NCBI GenBank assembly: GCA_030699905.1
Contig: JAUYKQ010000010.1
Span: 2,554-66,553, forward strand
Length of the DNA: 64,000 bases
From: a bacterium
Lineage (GTDB): Bacteria > Patescibacteriota > Minisyncoccia > Phycocordibacterales > GCA-002787175
Direction of reading: 5' to 3'
Numbering within the stretch: the first letter of the stretch is position 1; every line of letters starts with the position of its first letter. The position numbers and the translations under genes are program-made. The notes beneath the pieces were generated by a model. That model was not told where the DNA came from. It did no database searches and saw only the letters and a program-made list of their open reading frames with translations. Of this stretch, positions 9,848-35,402 are shown piece by piece.

Positions 9848-11675
9848 AGCCGATACTGCCTTCAAAGGAGAAGGTGTGGACTTTGACAATTAAAACTTGA
9901 AATATTAAAGATTTGAGACGTGCAAGGTCTCAAAGTCTATTCCTTCCCGGCAGTAGAGAATTAAAAATTTTCACTGCGGGAAAAAAATGATTCCACCGGC
10001 TGACTAAGACAGCCGGCAGAGCAAGTTCAAACTCTTAAAACAACAAACAAAATTTCAGCAAAAACTGTCTTTTGTTTTGTTCCGTTCTAAAAATGCAGAC
10101 AAGATGCAAACAAAACTCCGGCGGACGAGGGAGGCAACTCCTCCGTAGGTCGGAGCGATGTAGGCAATAATGTCCTCATTTCTTAAATTAGAGTTTGATC
10201 CTAGCTCAGGATGAACGCTGGCGGCGTGGATAAGGCATGCAAGTCAAGGGTGTGTGCGGAGCACACAGTTTATAAAGTTATAAAGTCATAAAGTTCATAA
10301 AGTCAGAATCTTCTGCTTTACAAACTTTTTACTTTACGAACTTGTAACTTGTGCGCTTCGCGCACAACCGGCAGACGAGGTAGTAATAAGTAGGAATGTC
10401 CCCAAGAGTCAGGCATAGCTACGCGAAAGCGTGGGTAATTCCTGATGGTCTGACCGCATCACATGGAATGTGAATTAAGTTTATCAAGTTCATAAAGTTG
10501 CAAGTTTATAAAGTAAGACCAATGCCGGATTTTTTAGGCTCGCTTTTCTTACTTGATGAACTTTATAACTTTTTACTTTATAAACTTATTTCGCCTCTCA
10601 TGTGATGCGGTCAGTAAAGTCGCAAGACGCTTTTGGAACAGCCTACTCGGTATCAGCTAGATGGTAGGGTAATGGCCTACCATGGCTATGACGCCTAGGG
10701 GGGGTGAGAGCCCGATCCCCACCGATCGGACTGAGATACGGCCGATACACCTACGGGTGGCTGCAGCCGAGAATATTCCGCAATGGGCGAAAGCCTGACG
10801 GAGCGACGCCGCGTGGTTGATGAAGTTCTTAGGAATGTAAAAACCTTTTATTAGGGAGGAAGCGTGCGAAGCACACTGTACATGACACTGATGACACGAA
10901 TGTAAAGAACGAATGACACGAATAAAATTAACAAGACTTGATTTTATTCGTGTCATTCGCATCTTCTATTCGTAGATTCGTGTCGAGTTCAGCGCGCTTC
11001 GCGCGTTTGACGTTACCTGATGAATAAGGGGTTGCTAAACTCGTGCCAGCAGCAGCGGTAATACGAGTGCCCCGAGCGTTATCCGGAATCATTGGGCGTA
11101 AAGGGTGTGTAGGCGGCTTTGTTAGTCCTCTGTTAAATTCTTCGGCTCAACCGGGGTCTTGCAGGGGATACGGCAAAGCTTGAGGGTGTGAGGGGTGAAT
11201 GGAACTCATGGTGTAGGGGTGAAATCCGTTGATATCATGGGGAACACCAAAAGCGAAGGCAATTCACTGGCGCACTCCTGACGCTGAAACACGAAAGCGT
11301 GGGTAGCGAATGGGATTAGATAATCCTTGCCCGCTAATAAAACATAGGCAAAAGGTGTCTCTCCCGAAGGCGACTTCGGGATGAAAATCTAGCTGTATCG
11401 GGGAAACTCTCTGACACTATGCGCTTACTGGCGCGTTGGAGACAATCCCGAGGGAAGTTTTCTTGCATTGAAAGAAGGTTAATTTACCTGCATTGTAATT
11501 CTTGGAGCAATGCTGGTGCGAGTAAGGGAAAAGAAAAACAACTGTCCATAGTCGGAGGGTTGGGTGTTGCGGGGCTATCTGCACATCTCTTTGTCCAGGA
11601 AAAACCACCAACAGAAAGCGTGAGTAATTCGTGAAAGCGTGAATATGTGTCCCTTACTCAATTTGTTCTTTGGGC

Positions 11676-11754
11676 GCGGATGTAGCTCAGTTGGAATGAG
11701 TATCACCTTGATAAGGTGAGGGTCGCAGGGTTCGAATCCTTGCCATCCGCTCCA
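11676..11754 (+). tRNA. tRNA-Ile(GAU)-like sequence embedded in the 5' half of the 16S site-788 intron. Cloverleaf with a slightly long variable/T region; may be a functional tRNA, a pseudo-tRNA or a tRNA-like intron domain.
   Basis: Acceptor gcggatg/catccgc, D-arm gctcagttggaatgagt, anticodon stem tcacc/ggtga with loop ttGATaa, T-loop ggttcgaatcc, 3' tcca. ~70% identical to bacterial tRNA-Ile(GAU). Confidence 0.55.
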
Positions 11755-11871: not shown

Positions 11872-12639
11872 ATGCAAAACGCGGATTCAAAATATGTGCC
11901 TTTGTCGAATCAAGTGCGAGCCATTATTCTAGGGTCAATTCTTGGAGATGGGTCGCTCAAGATTCAAAACGAGTACGCCAATGCGAATTTACAAATTCGT
12001 CATTCGGAAACTCAAAAAGACTATCTCTTATGGAAAGCGAATGTGCTTAAAGAGATAGCCGGAGATGGTAGTGTGAGCGTGCAAAAGCCGGATGGATACA
12101 GTACGAAGCCAAAGTGGAGGTTCAGGAGCAAGAGAACTCCAGCATTGACCGAACTGCATCATTTGACCTATAAGCACAATGCCTTGCGCATCAGGCGCAC
12201 ATGGTTAAATCAAATGAACGCTTTGTCGCTCGCCGTATGGTGGTGCGATGACGGTTCACTTATTGGCTACGGAGGCAGAAAAGGGGTGTTTTGTACCGAC
12301 GGCTTTGATGAAGAGTCAGTCAAAATACTTGCTCGCTATCTTGGAGTGGTTTGGAACATACGAGCGATAGTTGCTCCTGTCGGGCGAAAGCGCGATGGAA
12401 AGCAAGATCAGTATTGGCGGTTATGGATTCGTTCGCAGGAAGAATTGAAGAAATTTCTGCGTATTATCCTGCCGTACATACCTGTTTCGAGTATGCTCAA
12501 AAAAGCCATTCTACTCTATAAAGACCCTCAATTTCAACAACGCTGGATATCTGAAGTAATCAAGCTAAGTCCTTTTCCAGAATCTGTCATACTGGCGGAA
12601 TTTGAAAAAAAGAAAGCTAAATGGAATTGCTACAGATAA
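11872..12639 (+). CDS. LAGLIDADG homing endonuclease, double-motif, intron-encoded.
   Basis: Motifs LGSILGDGSL and LAVWWCDDGSL. Located inside the 16S intron. Confidence 0.85.
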   Translation: MQNADSKYVPLSNQVRAIILGSILGDGSLKIQNEYANANLQIRHSETQKDYLLWKANVLKEIAGDGSVSVQKPDGYSTKPKWRFRSKRTPALTELHHLTYKHNALRIRRTWLNQMNALSLAVWWCDDGSLIGYGGRKGVFCTDGFDEESVKILARYLGVVWNIRAIVAPVGRKRDGKQDQYWRLWIRSQEELKKFLRIILPYIPVSSMLKKAILLYKDPQFQQRWISEVIKLSPFPESVILAEFEKKKAKWNCYR

Positions 12640-12818
12640 AGATATAGTCCGGACTGCATGGAAACATGTAGAGCGAGGCAGAAATGCCCTCGCCTCCGCA
12701 TCAGGCGGAAGTAACATTTTCAACCCCAGTAGTCCACGCCCTAAACGATGTTCATTTGCTTTTCGGAGTATCGACCCTCTGAGAGGCGTAGCTAACGCGT
12801 TAAATGAACCGCCTGGGT

Positions 12819-12850
<32 letters not shown>

Positions 12851-13267
12851 AGACGGGGACTTGCACAAGCGGTGGATCATGTGGTTTAATTCGATACTAA
12901 ACGAAGAACCTTACCAAGCCTAGACATCCAAGGGAACTCCAGTAGAAATATTGGAGGCCACCACTTTGCGCGGAAGACGCAAAGTGAGTTCGTCAAGTTA
13001 TAAAGTATAAAGTTCATCAAGTTAGAGAATGTCTTACTTGATAAACTTTAAGAACTTTTGACTTGATAAACTTACTTTGTTCGCTTGCGAACAAAGTGCG
13101 GGGAGGAAGGCGAGGATGACGCCAGATCAGCATGACCCTTTGACGGCTTGGGCTACACACGTGATACAATGGCTGTTACAACACGTTTGCGACGGAGTAA
13201 TCCTGAGCTAATCGTTATAAAAGCAGCCCCAGTTCGGATTGAGGTCTGCAACTCGACCTCATGAAGT

Positions 13268-13314
<47 letters not shown>

Positions 13315-13322
13315 TCAAGTCT

Positions 13323-14262
13323 TGTACTCGGGTCGCCATGCGATCGAGTACGCTAGTTGGTGACCCGTCCTTCGTTAAAATTACGGAGGGCACGGTCCAG
13401 CTGTAATTTTTGAGCTTAATTAAATAAAAACCCCTGCTTATTTTATAAGGGGGGTTTAGGATCTAGAACTCTGAAAGCTGTTGTTGCGAGTTTCTATCTC
13501 TATTCTGCGGGACCGGCGTTGGATCTATTCAAACCAACCGCTTTCGCTTTTGGGGACTGATTTCGAACATTCTTCCAGAACTCCCTGACAAGATCCCTAA
13601 TTAATTAGGTCAGGACTATGTTACATGTTATCATATCTTGTGTTATCAGTCAAGAGCTTGAAAATTACAGCTGGACACGTTTTCGCTGAAGCTATAGCGA
13701 GGCGAGGAAATCCAACCAAGACAATTCACAGTGTCTTGAAGCGAAATACTAGTCTACTGTCCGCGAGGACTATAGATGAAGGAGTAAAGTAGCATTTCTT
13801 AGCTTGAATGCCAGTCATGGCGCATAACAGAGGTTATCCTGCGAGTACATGGAGAAACCTACTGTGTTACAAAAACTGTTATGCGTATCGTGGCATCGAG
13901 ATGAGAAAAAACAGTGTATTCGGTTACCGTGGGAGATCTCACTTGTTCTTTGTTTTTAAAGAGCAAAGTAAGCAATATATTAGGACGGGCAAAAATTTCC
14001 TAAAGTATTGATTAACAATAAGTGAGAAGTCTGCAGAGTCCGTAGTACCTATCGAAGTAAAATTTGATAGGGAAGGGACGAACTTAGAGGTTGTATGTAA
14101 TTTTTAATTTTGCATTGCTTGTCCCGTAGCGAGTTCTGCTCTGCTACAGGGATCATTTTGCATTTTGAGATTTGCATTTTAAATTTCTAAGAACCGCTAG
14201 GGTGCGGGAAAACCGCTTGCCCAGTGGTGTTTGGCTATTGAAAATAAATATCAATTGACCGA
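13323..14262 (+). other. ~940-nt ORF-less insertion in 16S near E. coli site ~1390, between cttgtac and accgcccgtca. Contains a long-range inverted repeat (13395-13411 / 13664-13680). Possibly a degenerate intron or other intervening sequence.
   Basis: Flanking conserved 16S segments gaatacgttctc...cttgtac and accgcccgtcaactcaagggagt. No ORF longer than 67 aa. Confidence 0.5.
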
Positions 14263-16924: not shown

Positions 16925-17027
16925 AGTGTATGGGATTTAGCGTATAGCTTACAGCTAAGAAAGTCAATTGAATTTATGCGGGTTTCAGGTAGAATATAGA
17001 GCGTTATACTTTTAATCACAAATCAAT

Positions 17028-17102
17028 CTCTAATTTCTGCTCGAATCCTCTCGAATTCCGATTCGGGACGATTAGAGTTCTTAATTCGGGATTGATTAGA
17101 GA
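17028..17102. repeat. Intergenic repeat, family 'ctctaatc / attcgggatt / gattagag', copy 1.
   Basis: Shares 8-15-nt blocks with copies at 18893-19020, 20327-20412 and 24721-24765. Confidence 0.5.
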
Positions 17103-17104
17103 AA

Positions 17105-17272
17105 ATGAAATTAATTTGTATTGAATGCAAAAACGAAATTGATACGTCTCCGTATCCGAACTTGTCAAAAAACCAGACATTGGAATGCAACCACTGTGGC
17201 ATCTCTCTTCTGGTGTCTGACGTAAAAGACAGTGGGGAAGTGGAAGTGGAAATCGCCGATGAGGGTAAATAG
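17105..17272 (+). CDS. Small (55 aa) Cys4 zinc-ribbon protein (CxxC...CxxC) with an acidic C-terminal tail; LysW-like in organisation. Not in the ORF track (<60 aa).
   Basis: MKLICIECKNEIDTSPYPNLSKNQTLECNHCGISLLVSDVKDSGEVEVEIADEGK. Two CxxC pairs ~25 aa apart. Confidence 0.35.
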   Translation: MKLICIECKNEIDTSPYPNLSKNQTLECNHCGISLLVSDVKDSGEVEVEIADEGK

Positions 17273-17346
17273 AATAATGTAACGTGTAGCTTGTAACGCA
17301 AAACATCAGGAAGTGACGCAAGGCGGACTTCCTTAAACTTGTTGAA

Positions 17347-18813
17347 TCACGAATCTTTAATCTGTCTTACCGTTTCCTCTATCATCCCCCTGAAACCGTG
17401 AGAACCGAGAAAGGATACCACATCTCCTTTTCTAATATTCGCTTTGATATACTGAATCACTTCCTCGTCTTTTTCTATGTATTTTGTGTTTACAAGTGTT
17501 TTGGATATCGTATGCGCGAGCTCGGCCCCTCCCATCGGAGCTTCCTTTTCCGGAGAAATTTTCTGTTTTGTAAGGCGAGGGATAATTACCAAGTCAGCAT
17601 CTTTAAAAGCGTCATCATAGGTTTTTTTCGCCATCTTCTCCCGTCCTCCGATATTCGGCTCAAAAATAGCAATGATTTTGGAGTTGCCATAAATAGAGCG
17701 GAGTTCCGCGAGAGTAAAGCGAGCTTTGCTTGGCGAGTGGGCTATGTCGTCAATAATGACAATGTCGTTCGCGTATCGTTTCTCAAGGCGACGTTTTAAG
17801 CCCTTAAATTCCGCCAAGGCCTTTTTTATAGTTTCCGGCTCAATTCCGATTTCTCGGGCCATGGCGAAAGCACCTGTAATATTTTCGGCATTGTAAAGTC
17901 CGATCATCGGCGAATTGATACGATGTGCCGTATTATTGTGGACAATCTCAAAAGTCAGCCCGTTCTTGTCTTGCCGGACATTTTCGTATCGGTACGTAGA
18001 GTCGGAACTTTTTCCGTATGAAGTAACTTGACTGCCTTCAATAACTTTTTTCACGCCCGGGTCGTCTATGTTTGCCAAGATATTTTTTTTGTCAGGAATA
18101 GAGTTAACAAGATTTTGAAAAGTTTCAAAATACGAGTCCTCTGTCTCATACATATCGGCGTGGTCCCAAGACACAGCAGTCAAAAGCAATCGGGTTGGTT
18201 TGTAATACGCAAATTTCGGCTTCTTGTCCCAAATGGCGGCTTGATACTCGTCTCCTTCAACGACACTCAAGTCGCTACCCGTGATTTTTCCGCTCGCGTG
18301 AGATAGCGAAAGTCCGCCAAAAAAATAGTTCGGATTGACTCCGGCGTATTCAAGTATAAAAGAAAGCAGGGCCGATGAAGTCGTTTTTCCCCATGTTCCG
18401 GCTACGACAACGGACTCATTTTTGACAATAAATTTGCCGACCGCCTCGGCAAAAGACAAAATGGGGATGTTTTTTTCTTTGGCAAAAATAATTTCCGGAT
18501 TGCTTTCACTTGTTCCGCCACCACCCGCTACCACCAAGTCAGGAGTTCCCACTCTTTCGTTTCCTCCCTGCTCCACCCCTCCTCTTTGAGGAGGGGTGTC
18601 CGTTCTGACGGACGGGGTGGTGTCTTTTGTTTTCATCCTCTCCGGATGCCAGCCCGCCCAAAATTCCACCCCTGCCTCTTTAAGTGCGTTTGATACGGGT
18701 GGGAAAAAGCCCTTGTCGCTTCCTGTTACTTTGTATCCGGCCGTTTTAAGCGCGACTGCAAGCGCTGATGTTCCAACACCGCAGATTCCAATAATGTGTA
18801 TGTGATTGGTCAT
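17347..18813 (-). CDS. murC: UDP-N-acetylmuramate--L-alanine ligase-like (MurC/Mpl family) with an in-frame low-complexity insertion (TTPSVRTDTPPQRGGVEQGGNERVGTP) encoded by two perfect GC-rich palindromes.
   Basis: N-terminal IHIIGICGVGTSALAVALKTAGYKVTGSD and ATP-binding VVVAGTWGKTTSSALL. Start at MTNHIHIIG. Confidence 0.65.
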   Translation of the reverse strand: MTNHIHIIGICGVGTSALAVALKTAGYKVTGSDKGFFPPVSNALKEAGVEFWAGWHPERMKTKDTTPSVRTDTPPQRGGVEQGGNERVGTPDLVVAGGGGTSESNPEIIFAKEKNIPILSFAEAVGKFIVKNESVVVAGTWGKTTSSALLSFILEYAGVNPNYFFGGLSLSHASGKITGSDLSVVEGDEYQAAIWDKKPKFAYYKPTRLLLTAVSWDHADMYETEDSYFETFQNLVNSIPDKKNILANIDDPGVKKVIEGSQVTSYGKSSDSTYRYENVRQDKNGLTFEIVHNNTAHRINSPMIGLYNAENITGAFAMAREIGIEPETIKKALAEFKGLKRRLEKRYANDIVIIDDIAHSPSKARFTLAELRSIYGNSKIIAIFEPNIGGREKMAKKTYDDAFKDADLVIIPRLTKQKISPEKEAPMGGAELAHTISKTLVNTKYIEKDEEVIQYIKANIRKGDVVSFLGSHGFRGMIEETVRQIKDS

Positions 18814-18892
18814 AAGTTGTTCAATCCGCACTGCGCCCGCCATAGCTTCAAAGCGAAGGCGGGGATGCCGATGATGTGTATGTGTGAAGTCA

Positions 18893-19020
18893 TAATCTCT
18901 AATCAAACCCGAATTCTCTAATCAGACACGAATTAAAGTCGCGAATACTCCCTAATATCAGATTCGAGATTGATTCGGGATAAAATTCTTATTTTACTAT
19001 TCGGGTTTATTAGTGATAAT
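18893..19020. repeat. Intergenic repeat, family 'ctctaatc / attcggg', copy 2, immediately upstream of the murC-like gene.
   Basis: atctctaatcaaacccgaattctctaatcag...gattgattcggg. Confidence 0.5.
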
Positions 19021-19606: not shown

Positions 19607-19634
19607 ATCCATTATTCGGCCGGATAATGGATAA
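19607..19634. terminator. Bidirectional terminator hairpin between convergent genes (tccattattcgg|ccggataatgga).
   Basis: Perfect 13-bp palindrome in an AT-rich context. Confidence 0.5.
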
Positions 19635-19640
19635 AATAAT

Positions 19641-20324
19641 TTAAGATTTGTTGAGGGGTAATTCATTCAATAGCTTTTTTATTGCTTCCGTGTCCGTGTT
19701 CCACTCGTTCCCGTCAAACCATTCCATGCCTTCAAATTGGAGTTTGTACGTGTCAGAAGGTCTCTGGAGTGAACCTATGTAAAAATATTTTCTGCCGTCC
19801 TCTTTTGCTTGTTGAATTGCAAGAAGCATCATGCCGAGACCTGTGTCTTTTGGGGCTTCAGATTCGTAAAAAGGATAGGAGTAGTGAAAAATATTCGGCG
19901 AGTCGTAACAGATTGTGTAAGCAAACGTGTAGCGTGTAGCGTGTAGCGTGTAGCGGAGGAGGCAGTTGAAATTGCTTTTTTCGGGATTAGTTAAAAGTTC
20001 TTTAATTTTGTTCGCGCTAAAGTCCGCATCGCGGGACGCATAAAAGTCCTTGGCCATTTTGCCGATGGGCCAGGAATAGCGTGTATCGTCTGAAGACAAA
20101 GACAAGGGGAGAGGGAGTTTCTCCATCTTCAATCCTTCGCATTTTTTTAAGATACGCCGGTTCTCGCTTGAGAGCTCAAATTTTGAAAGGGCAATTCTCG
20201 CGCTTCTGGTTTGGTGCATTACTCCTTTGCCAAGACGGGTGAAAACATAACCATTGTTGTACAAGGCCTCAACGCTTTCGTGAGAAAAGTCGGTAATGGT
20301 TTTTTCGTTCCAGTGTAAATACAT
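19641..20324 (-). CDS. Aminoacyl-tRNA--protein transferase-like protein (Bpt/Ate1 C-terminal family). Contains an in-frame (gtgtagc)x4 tandem repeat.
   Basis: C-terminal YFYIGSLQRPSDTYKLQFEGMEWFDGNEW resembles the Bpt motif YLGYW...SxKMxYKxxFxPxE. Confidence 0.45.
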   Translation of the reverse strand: MYLHWNEKTITDFSHESVEALYNNGYVFTRLGKGVMHQTRSARIALSKFELSSENRRILKKCEGLKMEKLPLPLSLSSDDTRYSWPIGKMAKDFYASRDADFSANKIKELLTNPEKSNFNCLLRYTLHATRYTFAYTICYDSPNIFHYSYPFYESEAPKDTGLGMMLLAIQQAKEDGRKYFYIGSLQRPSDTYKLQFEGMEWFDGNEWNTDTEAIKKLLNELPLNKS

Positions 20325-20326
20325 GT

Positions 20327-20412
20327 TCTCTAATCAATCTCTAATTTTCATCTCAAATTTCCCGAATCCCTATTCGGGATTATTAGTGTTTAGATTTGGG
20401 ATTGATTGGTGA
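20327..20412. repeat. Intergenic repeat, family 'ctctaatc / attcgggatt', copy 3.
   Basis: gttctctaatcaatctctaat...cccgaatccctattcgggattattag...gggattgattgg. Confidence 0.5.
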
Positions 20413-34445: not shown

Positions 34446-35402
34446 ATGTCCAAAAATCTTCTTATAGGATTTATAGGCCAGGGCTACATCGGCAGAAACT
34501 ATGCAGATGATTTTGAAAGGCGGGGATACTCCGTGACGAGGTACGCCTTGGAGCCAGAATATTCCGCCAATAAAGAAAAGATAAAAGAATGCGACATCGT
34601 ATTCATTGCCGTGCCTACACCGACTGTGCCCGCCGAAGCTTTACGCAAAGGCGCGGATGTGCCCGCCGACTTGTCCGCCAAAGCTTTAGCGTCGGAGGAA
34701 GCTTCCCGTGAAGGAGGGCGACTTTCCGTGAAATTTGACGATTCAATCTTGCGCGATGTAGTTCCTCTTGTCGGCAAAGGCAAGATAGCCGTTATAAAAT
34801 CCACCATTTTGCCGGGGACTACGATGTCAATTCAGCGTGAAAATCCTGATGTCATTGTTTTGAACTCCCCTGAATTTTTAAGCGAAGCGACAGCCGATAA
34901 AGACACAGGGATGCCTTTTATGAACATTGTCGGAATGCCGGAAGACAGCCCGAGTTTCCGTTCTGCGGCCGAGAGGGCGCATTCGGTATTGCCGAAAGCT
35001 CCTTTCTCGCTGACTTGCAAAAGTATTGAAGCGGAAATAATAAAATACGCTCATAACGGATCGGGTTATACGCAGATAATTTTCTTCAATGCAATGTATG
35101 ATATTGCGCGGAAACTTGGTGCTGACTGGGAGCCGATAGAAAAGGCGATCTTGAACGACCCTTTGGTCTGTGGCCGTTACGCGAAGCCCGTCCACAAAAG
35201 CGGTCGAGGAGCGGGAGGAAATTGTTTTATAAAAGATTTCGCCGCTTTGTCAAAGTTTTATGCGGAAAATACCTCTGACTCAAAAGGCGCGGCATTTTTC
35301 CAAGCAGCCGAGAGAAAAAATATTGAGCTTTTGCGTTCCACAGGCAAAGACACAGGACTTTTGAAAGGAGTTTATGGCGAAGATGTTTCAAATAATCCCT
35401 AA
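34446..35402 (+). CDS. UDP-glucose/GDP-mannose dehydrogenase family protein. Short (318 aa, lacks the C-terminal UDP-binding domain) with an in-frame Ala/Glu/Ser-rich insertion.
   Basis: Rossmann N-terminus IGFIGQGYIG, IAVPTPT, NPEFLSEATA, GRGAGGNCFIKD. Confidence 0.6.
   Translation: MSKNLLIGFIGQGYIGRNYADDFERRGYSVTRYALEPEYSANKEKIKECDIVFIAVPTPTVPAEALRKGADVPADLSAKALASEEASREGGRLSVKFDDSILRDVVPLVGKGKIAVIKSTILPGTTMSIQRENPDVIVLNSPEFLSEATADKDTGMPFMNIVGMPEDSPSFRSAAERAHSVLPKAPFSLTCKSIEAEIIKYAHNGSGYTQIIFFNAMYDIARKLGADWEPIEKAILNDPLVCGRYAKPVHKSGRGAGGNCFIKDFAALSKFYAENTSDSKGAAFFQAAERKNIELLRSTGKDTGLLKGVYGEDVSNNP

Follow-up and report, generated by a model that had tools for sequence, protein, structure and literature searches.

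The stretch of DNA analyzed here (the window) comprises 64,000 nucleotides (nt) of contig JAUYKQ010000010.1 from a patescibacterial genome (assembly GCA_030699905.1). It contains a gene for a MurC/Mpl-like Mur ligase in which an extra in-frame segment surrounds a 47-nt repeat unit with the architecture of an intrastrand DNA triplex (Table 1). We put the probability at roughly 75% that the insert represents a copy of a GC-rich, non-coding DNA repeat that is dispersed and under structural rather than protein-coding constraint. The ligase carries the Pfam domains Mur_ligase, Mur_ligase_M, and Mur_ligase_C, and it scored 275 bits against the NCBIfam murC model and 221 bits against mpl, both under the equivalog cut-offs. 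Its best relatives were Parcubacteria/Paceibacteria-type (Patescibacteria) proteins, none of which exceeded 62% identity. An alignment of 30 homologs showed that the P-loop GTWGKTT and the remaining invariant residues are retained.

In the same alignment, GWHPE(K/R)M and G-x-PDLV are the motifs on either side of the extra segment. From GWHP to PD, 101 of the 120 best homologs have a loop of 5 or 8 residues, and the window ligase has one of 33; the long-loop exceptions among the 120 are P0002 (21 residues), P0003 (20 residues), and P0028 (17 residues). Ligase residues 4-129 covered 91 positions of the Pfam Mur_ligase profile, and the alignment with the Mpl structure of PDB entry 3hn7 broke exactly at the insert (query 55 to 90 versus chain 72 to 80). 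In an AlphaFold2 model with a mean predicted local distance difference test score (pLDDT) of 90.5, residues 61-92 formed a coil in which pLDDT fell under 50 for residues 64-85, and they were flanked by a helix (57-60) and a strand (93-96) inside the N-terminal domain, approximately 45 residues ahead of the P-loop (G139-T144). The insert therefore looks like a disordered surface loop of the N-terminal domain. Since the P-loop and the invariant residues are intact and the insert is modeled as a disordered loop, the gene looks functional and the enzyme appears to have been left intact by the insert. A preliminary description of this locus, made from the sequence alone, had proposed a 27-residue in-frame palindromic insertion in a surface loop between the N-terminal region and the P-loop. 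The segment is real, spans 28 codons, and is absent from nearly all orthologs in both the 30-homolog alignment and the 120-homolog census; its surface-loop location agrees with the model, and it does precede the P-loop, but it lies inside the N-terminal domain rather than between domains.

On the plus strand, which is the G-rich strand, has a positive GC skew, and serves as the template of the ligase gene, the unit consists of a pyrimidine arm (CCCCTCCTC), the loop TTT, a purine arm (GAGGAGGGG), a 17-nt hairpin linker, and a third arm (GGGGTGGTG). It occupies codons 64-80 and has a G+C content of 66%, compared with 43% for the genome. The sense strand reads CACCACCCC-GTCCGTCAGAACGGAC-A-CCCCTCCTC-AAA-GAGGAGGGG, which exactly matches the hairpin-spacer type of copies described below. 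Hoyne et al. and Holder et al. use the name class II for a purine motif with the order of pyrimidine arm, purine arm, and third arm, in which G*G-C triplets are combined with T*A-T or A*A-T triplets (PMC4666352). The window unit has the required arm order on one strand (5'-pyrimidine, loop, purine, loop, reverse-Hoogsteen-3'). A class II finder written for this analysis scored 9/9 Watson-Crick pairs for the homopurine arm, where at least 6-8 nt with no more than one mismatch to the pyrimidine arm are expected, and 9/9 mirror triplets for the antiparallel third arm, where G*G-C together with T*A-T or A*A-T are the sole triplets admitted. The unit was the sole perfect class II match in the 64 kb, and 20 shuffled sequences gave none. 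The 3-nt first loop also conforms to the short loops expected of such motifs.

The preliminary description had reported two perfect palindromes in the insert. Both are indeed perfect, although the loop of the first is TTT, of 3 rather than 4 nt, and both are non-random. Perfect 11-bp hairpins are expected by chance approximately 0.15 times per 64 kb by our estimate, and the 25-mer of hairpin 1 matched nothing else in the window and none of 100 shuffles. The predicted RNA fold of the sense strand had a free energy of -45.9 kcal/mol over 111 nt (z = -4.45) and the DNA fold of the plus strand, for which ViennaRNA models hairpins only, had a z-score of -4.87; in neither case was any shuffle as stable. 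The palindromes are not independent, however. Together with GGGGTGGTG they form one unit, in which the second palindrome is merely a self-paired spacer that separates the purine arm from the third arm, and G18598 is common to both hairpins. Neither the third arm nor the triplex code had been mentioned in the preliminary description, nor had the linker-only role of the second palindrome. On the sense strand, a candidate second third arm (AGGGAGGA) may make the element two-sided, and two-sided copies are known at other loci, such as L018 and L114. A generic hairpin scan of the window found 23 perfect hairpins with stems of 9 bp or more, none of which was related to the unit. Composition was rejected as a signature of the unit, as 80-nt segments with at least 60% G+C are common in the window.

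To place the unit in a wider context, we scanned one genome per species (596 Gb) with the pattern CCCCTCCTC-NNN-GAGGAGGGG only. The hairpin was matched at 120 or more loci, compared with our estimate of approximately 10-20 expected by chance. Within 60 nt, the sequence [AC]CCACCCC or GGGGTGG[TG] was present in 101 of the 139 matches listed and on both sides in 11. This flanking arm, (C)ACCACCCC, which equals GGGGTGGT(G) on the opposite strand, was absent from the search pattern. Two arm spacings were observed: 14-16 nt or more, where the spacer is a hairpin closed by G...C and followed by A, and 3-5 nt with no hairpin. The architecture of the unit was found in 67 + 42 copies elsewhere among the matches listed, arranged singly, in tandem, or as inverted pairs 100-260 nt apart, and many copies lay close to contig ends. 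The hosts included Acidobacteriota, Burkholderiales, Gammaproteobacteria, Bacteroidota, Ignavibacteria, Rhodothermales, Verrucomicrobia, and at least eight lineages of Patescibacteria, and their genomes span a G+C content of 0.30 to 0.72. A Flavobacteriales metagenome-assembled genome (MAG) contained a tandem array with a period of approximately 162 nt (L028, 1250-2000), each period of which held two different triplex-type units in opposite orientations. Only one viral contig contained the hairpin, and a phage vehicle was rejected on this ground. No Rfam family matched the window region even at a permissive threshold, the best hit being DUF1874 (E = 1.8, covering only the hairpin), and there was no match at gathering thresholds for 18 repeat-bearing loci. 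A full-text literature search with the raw sequence strings returned irrelevant papers only, and the literature search found no paper in which such motifs are connected with coding regions or with Patescibacteria. The repeat family is widespread and, as a sequence family, apparently undescribed; the palindromic element postulated in the preliminary description proved to have abundant copies in other genomes and metagenomes.

The arms of these copies covary according to a mirror rule. The purine arm GAGGAGGGG is paired with the third arm GGGGTGGTG and AAGGAGGGG with GGGGTGGTT (74/23 versus 8/25 in a 2 x 2 table, p = 1.7e-7). Among 70 unselected hairpins, defined as those near the ascertained ones and outside the search pattern, 54 carried a perfect mirror arm of their own stem within 45 nt, whereas the mirrors of other stems occurred in 104 of 910 comparisons (p = 9e-33); both p-values are inflated because copies that share a genome lack independence. 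A stronger argument than the p-values is how many distinct stem types follow the rule. Each of the stems AGGGAGGGG, GGGGAGAGGGG, GGGAGAGGG, AAGGGGAGG, AAGGGGGAG, AAAGGGGG, GAGGGGGA, and AGGGGAGG is accompanied by its own mirror arm, and at least ten distinct stem types conform in total, with third arms of both the G/T and the G/A kind; some copies have GGGGAGGAG as their third arm, which yields A*A-T triplets. Three alternative roles for the mirror arm were checked by hand and rejected, namely a pseudoknot, pairing of the G-U type, and a triplex of the pyrimidine motif formed by the C-rich strand; the purine-motif code alone fits both the G/T and the G/A variants. Mimicry of an anti-Shine-Dalgarno sequence or of the 3' end of 16S rRNA was dropped as a superficial resemblance.

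The linker that joins the purine arm to the third arm was 3-37 nt long and variable in sequence. Nevertheless, a stem of at least 4 bp anchored at the linker ends was present in 29 of 52 unique long linkers, compared with 4.7% of shuffles, and these linkers had 19 different stem sequences. Because linkers vary freely in length and sequence yet often have such a stem, the second palindrome in the window can be regarded as only a structured spacer. In Acidobacteriota, stems similar to those of the Escherichia coli repeat TM_ECO (CCCTCTCCC / GGGAGAGGG / GGGTGAGGG) were also found with hairpin linkers of 20-40 nt (L022, L054, L114, and L123), which indicates that the hairpin linker is not confined to one stem family.

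Copies also occur in frame in other genes. A scan of metagenomes with a pattern composed of the third arm, GTCCGT...ACGGAC, and the start of the pyrimidine arm retrieved the subfamily that shares the linker stem GTCCGT/ACGGAC from six contigs with a G+C content of 0.43-0.47, which provided three further contexts (Table 1). Related units were found in the genes for TsaD, MnmA, a family-2 glycosyltransferase (GT2), and an RmlD-like protein, and at the N-termini of MutL and a MiaA-like protein, all in low-G+C genomes. In Patescibacteria-like genomes, two or three separate triplex-type units were observed in frame within single essential genes, in TsaD (L072), in MnmA (L081), and in an open reading frame (ORF) of 1025 amino acids (L097). 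In 111 kb of Patescibacteria-like loci, each of which had been ascertained for one copy, we counted 44 units, 16 of them within ORFs of at least 150 amino acids. The translation of these copies was deduced from their open frames. The hairpin is read in all three frames, as PPxRGG in the window and as PLLxEEG and PSSxRRG elsewhere, and hence it is the nucleotide structure, not the peptide, that is conserved.

Table 1. Features of the Mur ligase locus and of repeat units in genes at other loci
Feature	Position	Strand	Remarks
MurC/Mpl-like Mur ligase gene	17347-18813	minus	488 aa from ATG; intact host of the insert; from ORF and Pfam
Extra loop KTKDTTPSVRTDTPPQRGGVEQGGNERV	18550-18633	minus	codons 61-88 (K61-V88; 28 codons); no counterpart in typical homologs
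27-residue segment TTPSVRTDTPPQRGGVEQGGNERVGTP	18541-18621	minus	residues 65-91; coordinates checked
47-nt repeat unit	18576-18622	plus	G-rich (template) strand; class II purine-motif intrastrand triplex architecture
Hairpin 1, CACCCCTCCTC-TTT-GAGGAGGGGTG	18574-18598	plus	11-nt arms, 100% complementary
Pyrimidine arm CCCCTCCTC	18576-18584	plus	part of hairpin 1; CA/TG extends the stem to 11 bp
First loop TTT	18585-18587	plus	part of hairpin 1
Purine arm GAGGAGGGG	18588-18596	plus	part of hairpin 1
Hairpin 2, GTCCGT-TCTG-ACGGAC	18598-18613	plus	structured linker from purine arm to third arm
Third arm GGGGTGGTG	18614-18622	plus	mirror of the purine arm with A->T; antiparallel G*G-C and T*A-T triplets
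Candidate second third arm AGGGAGGA	18562-18569	minus (sense)	7/8 triplets; linker TGGAGC; weak evidence
Glutamyl-tRNA synthetase (GluRS) gene	L126		subfamily copy in frame, read SPTTPSVGTDTPPRAGGEG
ORF of 163 aa	L127		subfamily copy at the end
Gene for Pro/Ala/Glu-rich protein	L128-L131		subfamily copy
TsaD gene	L072, 752-1879		in-frame units fill all three gaps relative to the solved E. coli-type PDB homolog
MnmA gene	L081, 3172-4422		in-frame insert, approximately 24 extra residues
GT2 and RmlD-like protein genes			related units in frame
MutL and MiaA-like genes			unit at or just upstream of the N-terminus

The relatives of the ligase provided information on the age of the insertion. P0002, encoded at locus L001, is syntenic with the window ligase, but its 21-residue loop is unrelated and contains neither a unit nor a decayed unit; the homology between the window and L001 in the ligase gene ends at codon 58. 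The second-closest homolog, P0003, has a different unit at the same loop, on the antisense strand (CCCCCTTT-ATT-AAAGGGGG-19 nt-GGGGGATT, 0 mismatches). This unit corresponds exactly to the 16-codon insert of P0003, and P0003 was recovered from 11 contigs, including those of three independent samples (ENA and JGI). Since the syntenic P0002 has an unrelated loop and no unit, the window unit was probably gained, or replaced, after the split from the L001 lineage. The preliminary description had named homologous, non-palindromic segments in relatives as the observation that would refute an insertion, and what was found instead was an unrelated loop in P0002 and a different palindromic triplex unit in P0003.

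The ligase gene also differs from its surroundings in the comparison with L001. The gene next to it is 88% identical at the DNA level, yet the ligases are 62% identical as proteins (17558-18186 and 19609-20400), although residues ~240-330 are nearly identical to those of P0002. The ligase gene thus appears to be either mosaic or unusually fast-changing relative to its surroundings. Just upstream of the start codon, at 18816-18895 on the minus strand, there is a second copy of the first ten codons (ATG ACT TCA CAC ATA CAC ATC ATC GGC ATC). It encodes MTSHIHIIGI, the N-terminus of P0002, and is followed by a 50-nt insert that ends in a stop codon and contains an imperfect palindrome (18836-18863). 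This upstream copy matches the upstream region and gene start of L001 at 87%. This copy, the older of the two, looks like a scar left at the 5' end by an insertion or recombination, from which a duplicated start provided rescue.

Taken together, these findings suggest the following course of events. The unit would have entered the ligase gene as DNA, landing in an N-terminal-domain loop where extra residues are tolerated, and would now be transcribed and translated straight through as TTPSVRTDTPPQRGGV within the 28-residue loop, which is predicted to be disordered. What is selected would be the element rather than the peptide, and selection would maintain the fold of the G-rich single strand. 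For the host, the unit may be a tolerated passenger as well as a source of lineage-specific loop insertions. Spread might occur by a process acting on the folded single strand, either a structure-specific enzyme or an error of replication or repair at this site, which we offer as a low-confidence guess. The element does not look like a classical transposase system with terminal inverted repeats. A broader proposal, to which we give somewhat less than even odds, is that tiny cross-phylum repeats, whose sole conserved property is the triplex code with a free-form linker that is often a hairpin, colonize essential genes of the candidate phyla radiation (CPR) in frame as well as spacers and thereby generate many lineage-specific protein loops.

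Several observations weigh against the interpretation of the insert as a copy of a mobile, fold-selected repeat. No other copy of the unit was found in the window by word searches with ACCACCCC and CCCCTCC or by the hairpin and class II scans. The second loop, at 17 nt and self-paired, exceeds the short loops of published motifs. No gene or transposase was shared among the neighborhoods within 4 kb of 120 copies (all-against-all BLAST of 2,366 ORFs, in which only generic families were common), and the copies showed no significant replication-strand bias (51 of 89 agreed with the local GC skew). Neither the window unit nor the units at L126-L131 are flanked by a target-site duplication, which is a weak negative because the boundaries are imprecise. 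The databases contain no near-identical strain with an empty site, the ligase being a single-member protein cluster with its nearest relative at 62% identity. Because the three closest homologs are all long-looped at this site, the unit may be younger than some of the 28 extra residues. The mirror rule has exceptions in two Patescibacteria loci (L076, 5279-5342, and L077, 3615-3672), where the stem GAGGGGAGG is followed by GAGGGGTGG, a direct rather than a mirror copy of the purine arm, and the non-independence of copies noted above reduces the force of the covariation statistics. Finally, the triplex of TM_ECO was not detected in vivo by dimethyl sulfate footprinting (PMC4666352).

The insert might instead have arisen in place, without any pre-existing element, through template switching during replication, the correction of a quasi-palindrome, or slippage where the context is G-rich and encodes glycine. 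A conserved G-rich sequence downstream (GGTGGTAGCGGGTGGTGGCGG, which encodes VVAGGGG) does resemble the third arm, each of the three closest relatives has a different expansion in the same loop, and the single copy in the window and the lack of a target-site duplication would both be expected. However, more than 60 copies from unrelated phyla have the identical 9+9+9 arms, CA ahead of the pyrimidine arm, and linker closed by G...C, and the linker stem recurs in three other gene contexts. It is not credible that the same string of approximately 31 nt arose locally and independently, and we consider a purely local origin improbable. Nearly the same low probability, or slightly less, can be assigned to a role at the RNA level, in which hairpins of the mRNA or of an antisense transcript regulate translation, pause ribosomes between folding units, or stabilize the message and the triplex code is incidental. 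The strong sense-strand fold and the location of the hairpins within the part of the coding sequence for the N-terminal domain would suit such a role, but neither Watson-Crick nor G-U pairing explains why the third arm mirrors the purine arm, and RNA does not form purine-motif triplexes (PMC4666352). Moreover, the strand carried by the mRNA is C-rich, and its CACCACCCC arm departs from the pyrimidine-motif code; copies are found between genes as well as in either orientation relative to them, and there was no match to an Rfam family.

Selection on the protein, with a Pro/Gly/Thr-rich flexible loop or interaction site as its object and the palindromes as a by-product, is very unlikely. The window unit and those at L126 and L128-L131 share a subfamily frame, TTPSV(R/G)TDTPP..., as such selection would predict, yet nearly all homologs lack the insert, which is predicted to be disordered, other genes read the hairpin in all three frames, and the conserved property is the nucleotide structure, with its triplet code and covarying linker, rather than the peptide. 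Least likely of all is a chimeric join of repeat-containing reads during assembly or binning. The source is a MAG, and in other assemblies such repeats are often near contig ends; here, however, the insert is in frame with the same well-folding gene on both sides and is interior to a 64-kb window of a 92.5-kb contig, and analogous in-frame units were obtained from independent assemblies (P0003 from ENA and JGI samples, and L128-L131 from different projects). A copy of a dispersed, structurally constrained DNA repeat remains the interpretation that we favor.

Other features of the window were also noted. The preliminary description had likened the insert to hairpin modules in the rRNA genes and to an insertion in a UGDH-like gene, and neither likeness was supported. 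The window has no other unit copy or perfect class II unit, the rRNA genes included. The 16S rRNA gene is interrupted, with matches at 10183-11392 and 12576-13354; a tRNA-like match (11676-11751) and an ORF of 255 amino acids (11872-12639) lie between the two parts, a perfect 19-bp A+T-rich hairpin (10910-10959) lies inside the first part, and a match to group II intron D1-D4 was found at 14009-14078. The apparent insertion in the UGDH-like gene (34620-34730, plus strand; VPAEALRKGADVPADLSAKALASEEASREGGRLS) is encoded by imperfect direct repeats (GTGCCCGCCGA...AAGCTTTA) and AAGCTT-centered palindromes such as GGAAGCTTCC, and it has neither a pyrimidine/purine hairpin nor a third arm. A motif (G)AATTCGGG(T/A)TTGATTAGAGA was present in both orientations in intergenic regions upstream of genes, at 17016-17102 and 18896-18990 in the window and at 93-217 and 986-1057 in the related contig L001; a regulatory site or a further small repeat would be possible readings. 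No long ORF lies in the 420-nt gap at 16925-17346, and L001 has a gene for a protein of 276 amino acids at this place.

Unexplained loop insertions are common in CPR proteins, and the unit offers a concrete and checkable origin for them; all three gaps of TsaD are an example. In-frame copies can be recognized by the peptides PPxRGG, PLLxEEG, and PSSxRRG, and they can be masked in alignments, phylogenies, and structure predictions. The mirror-rule covariation also makes an old question, the biological reality of intrastrand DNA triplexes in bacteria, testable: if true, the three-way covariation of the arms over at least ten stem variants would be comparative-genomic evidence of in-cell selection on the triplex fold, which experiments with BoxC in E. 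coli did not provide. The finders used so far allow loops of 1-6 nt (ITxF) or 0-10 nt (Hoyne et al.) (PMC4666352). They would overlook the window copy because its second loop is 17 nt, whereas sister copies with 3-5-nt linkers fall within these limits; a large subclass with hairpin linkers escapes finders whose loops are capped at 6-10 nt, and the abundance of the motif is underestimated.

The in-frame location recalls the Rickettsia palindromic elements (RPE), small palindromic repeats that are found in frame in unrelated housekeeping genes, where they are translated and tolerated (PMC10969869). The window-type repeats are likewise inserted in frame in unrelated conserved genes, namely those of the Mur ligase here and of GluRS, TsaD, MnmA, GT2, and the RmlD-like protein elsewhere. 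Unlike RPE, however, which are approximately 100-150 bp long, restricted to Rickettsia, and have a conserved peptide in one frame per family, the unit is 47 nt long, crosses phyla, and is read in three frames. The mirror rule defines the unit and sets it apart from RPE as described, as the review on RPE mentions no triplex property (PMC10969869). Similarities also exist with repetitive extragenic palindromic (REP) sequences, bacterial interspersed mosaic elements (BIME), and MITEs (miniature transposable elements with inverted repeats), which are short, G+C-rich, and structured, form mosaics of single, tandem, and inverted-pair copies, and have no coding capacity of their own. The copies are multiple and dispersed, as expected of MITEs (at least 120 hairpin loci and three further subfamily contexts, with one copy in the window). 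In contrast to REPs and MITEs, the unit has internal stems only, with no terminal inverted repeats and no target-site duplication seen; an imperfect 10-nt repeat, AAAC[A/G]AAAGA, was rejected as a target duplication, since its 70-nt offset is not a multiple of 3, as an insertion that keeps the frame would require. By definition, REPs are extragenic, and their cognate REP-associated tyrosine transposase (RAYT) is a Y1 transposase. No RAYT or transposase was found within 4 kb of the 120 copies.

The closest resemblance is to BoxC/PIT/TM_ECO of E. coli and other Proteobacteria, described by Bachellier et al. in the 1990s, Hoyne et al. in 2000, and Holder et al. in 2015 (PMC4666352), which share with the unit a 9-nt pyrimidine arm, a loop of 3-6 nt, a 9-nt purine arm, a second loop, and a 9-nt G-rich mirror arm. 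The consensus of TM_ECO/BoxC is CCCTCNCCC-N3-6-GGGNGAGGG-N3-GGGNGAGGG, and a single strand of it forms a stable triplex in vitro, as demonstrated by circular dichroism and nuclear magnetic resonance (PMC4666352). TM_ECO has no promoter or terminator activity, occurs singly or in inverted pairs without association with mobile elements or transposases, and correlates with local sequence instability (PMC4666352). The window-type repeats are similarly G+C-rich and multicopy, occur singly or in inverted pairs on opposite strands, and have no associated transposase, phage, or plasmid and no strand-orientation bias. The sequences differ: the arms are CCCCTCCTC/GAGGAGGGG/GGGGTGGTG in the window and CCCTCNCCC/GGGNGAGGG in TM_ECO, the TM_ECO pattern had no match in the window or in 125 loci, and a BLAST search of 5,426 E. 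coli genomes found no match. The second loop is a 17-nt hairpin in the window unit, compared with 3 nt in TM_ECO. TM_ECO in E. coli MG1655 is "always located intergenically" (PMC4666352), whereas the window copy and many of its relatives lie in frame inside genes, and, unlike those of TM_ECO, the hosts of the window-type repeats include Patescibacteria and at least six other phyla. The unit in the window is, on this comparison, a BoxC/PIT-type intrastrand-triplex repeat with a hairpin linker, situated in frame in an essential gene.

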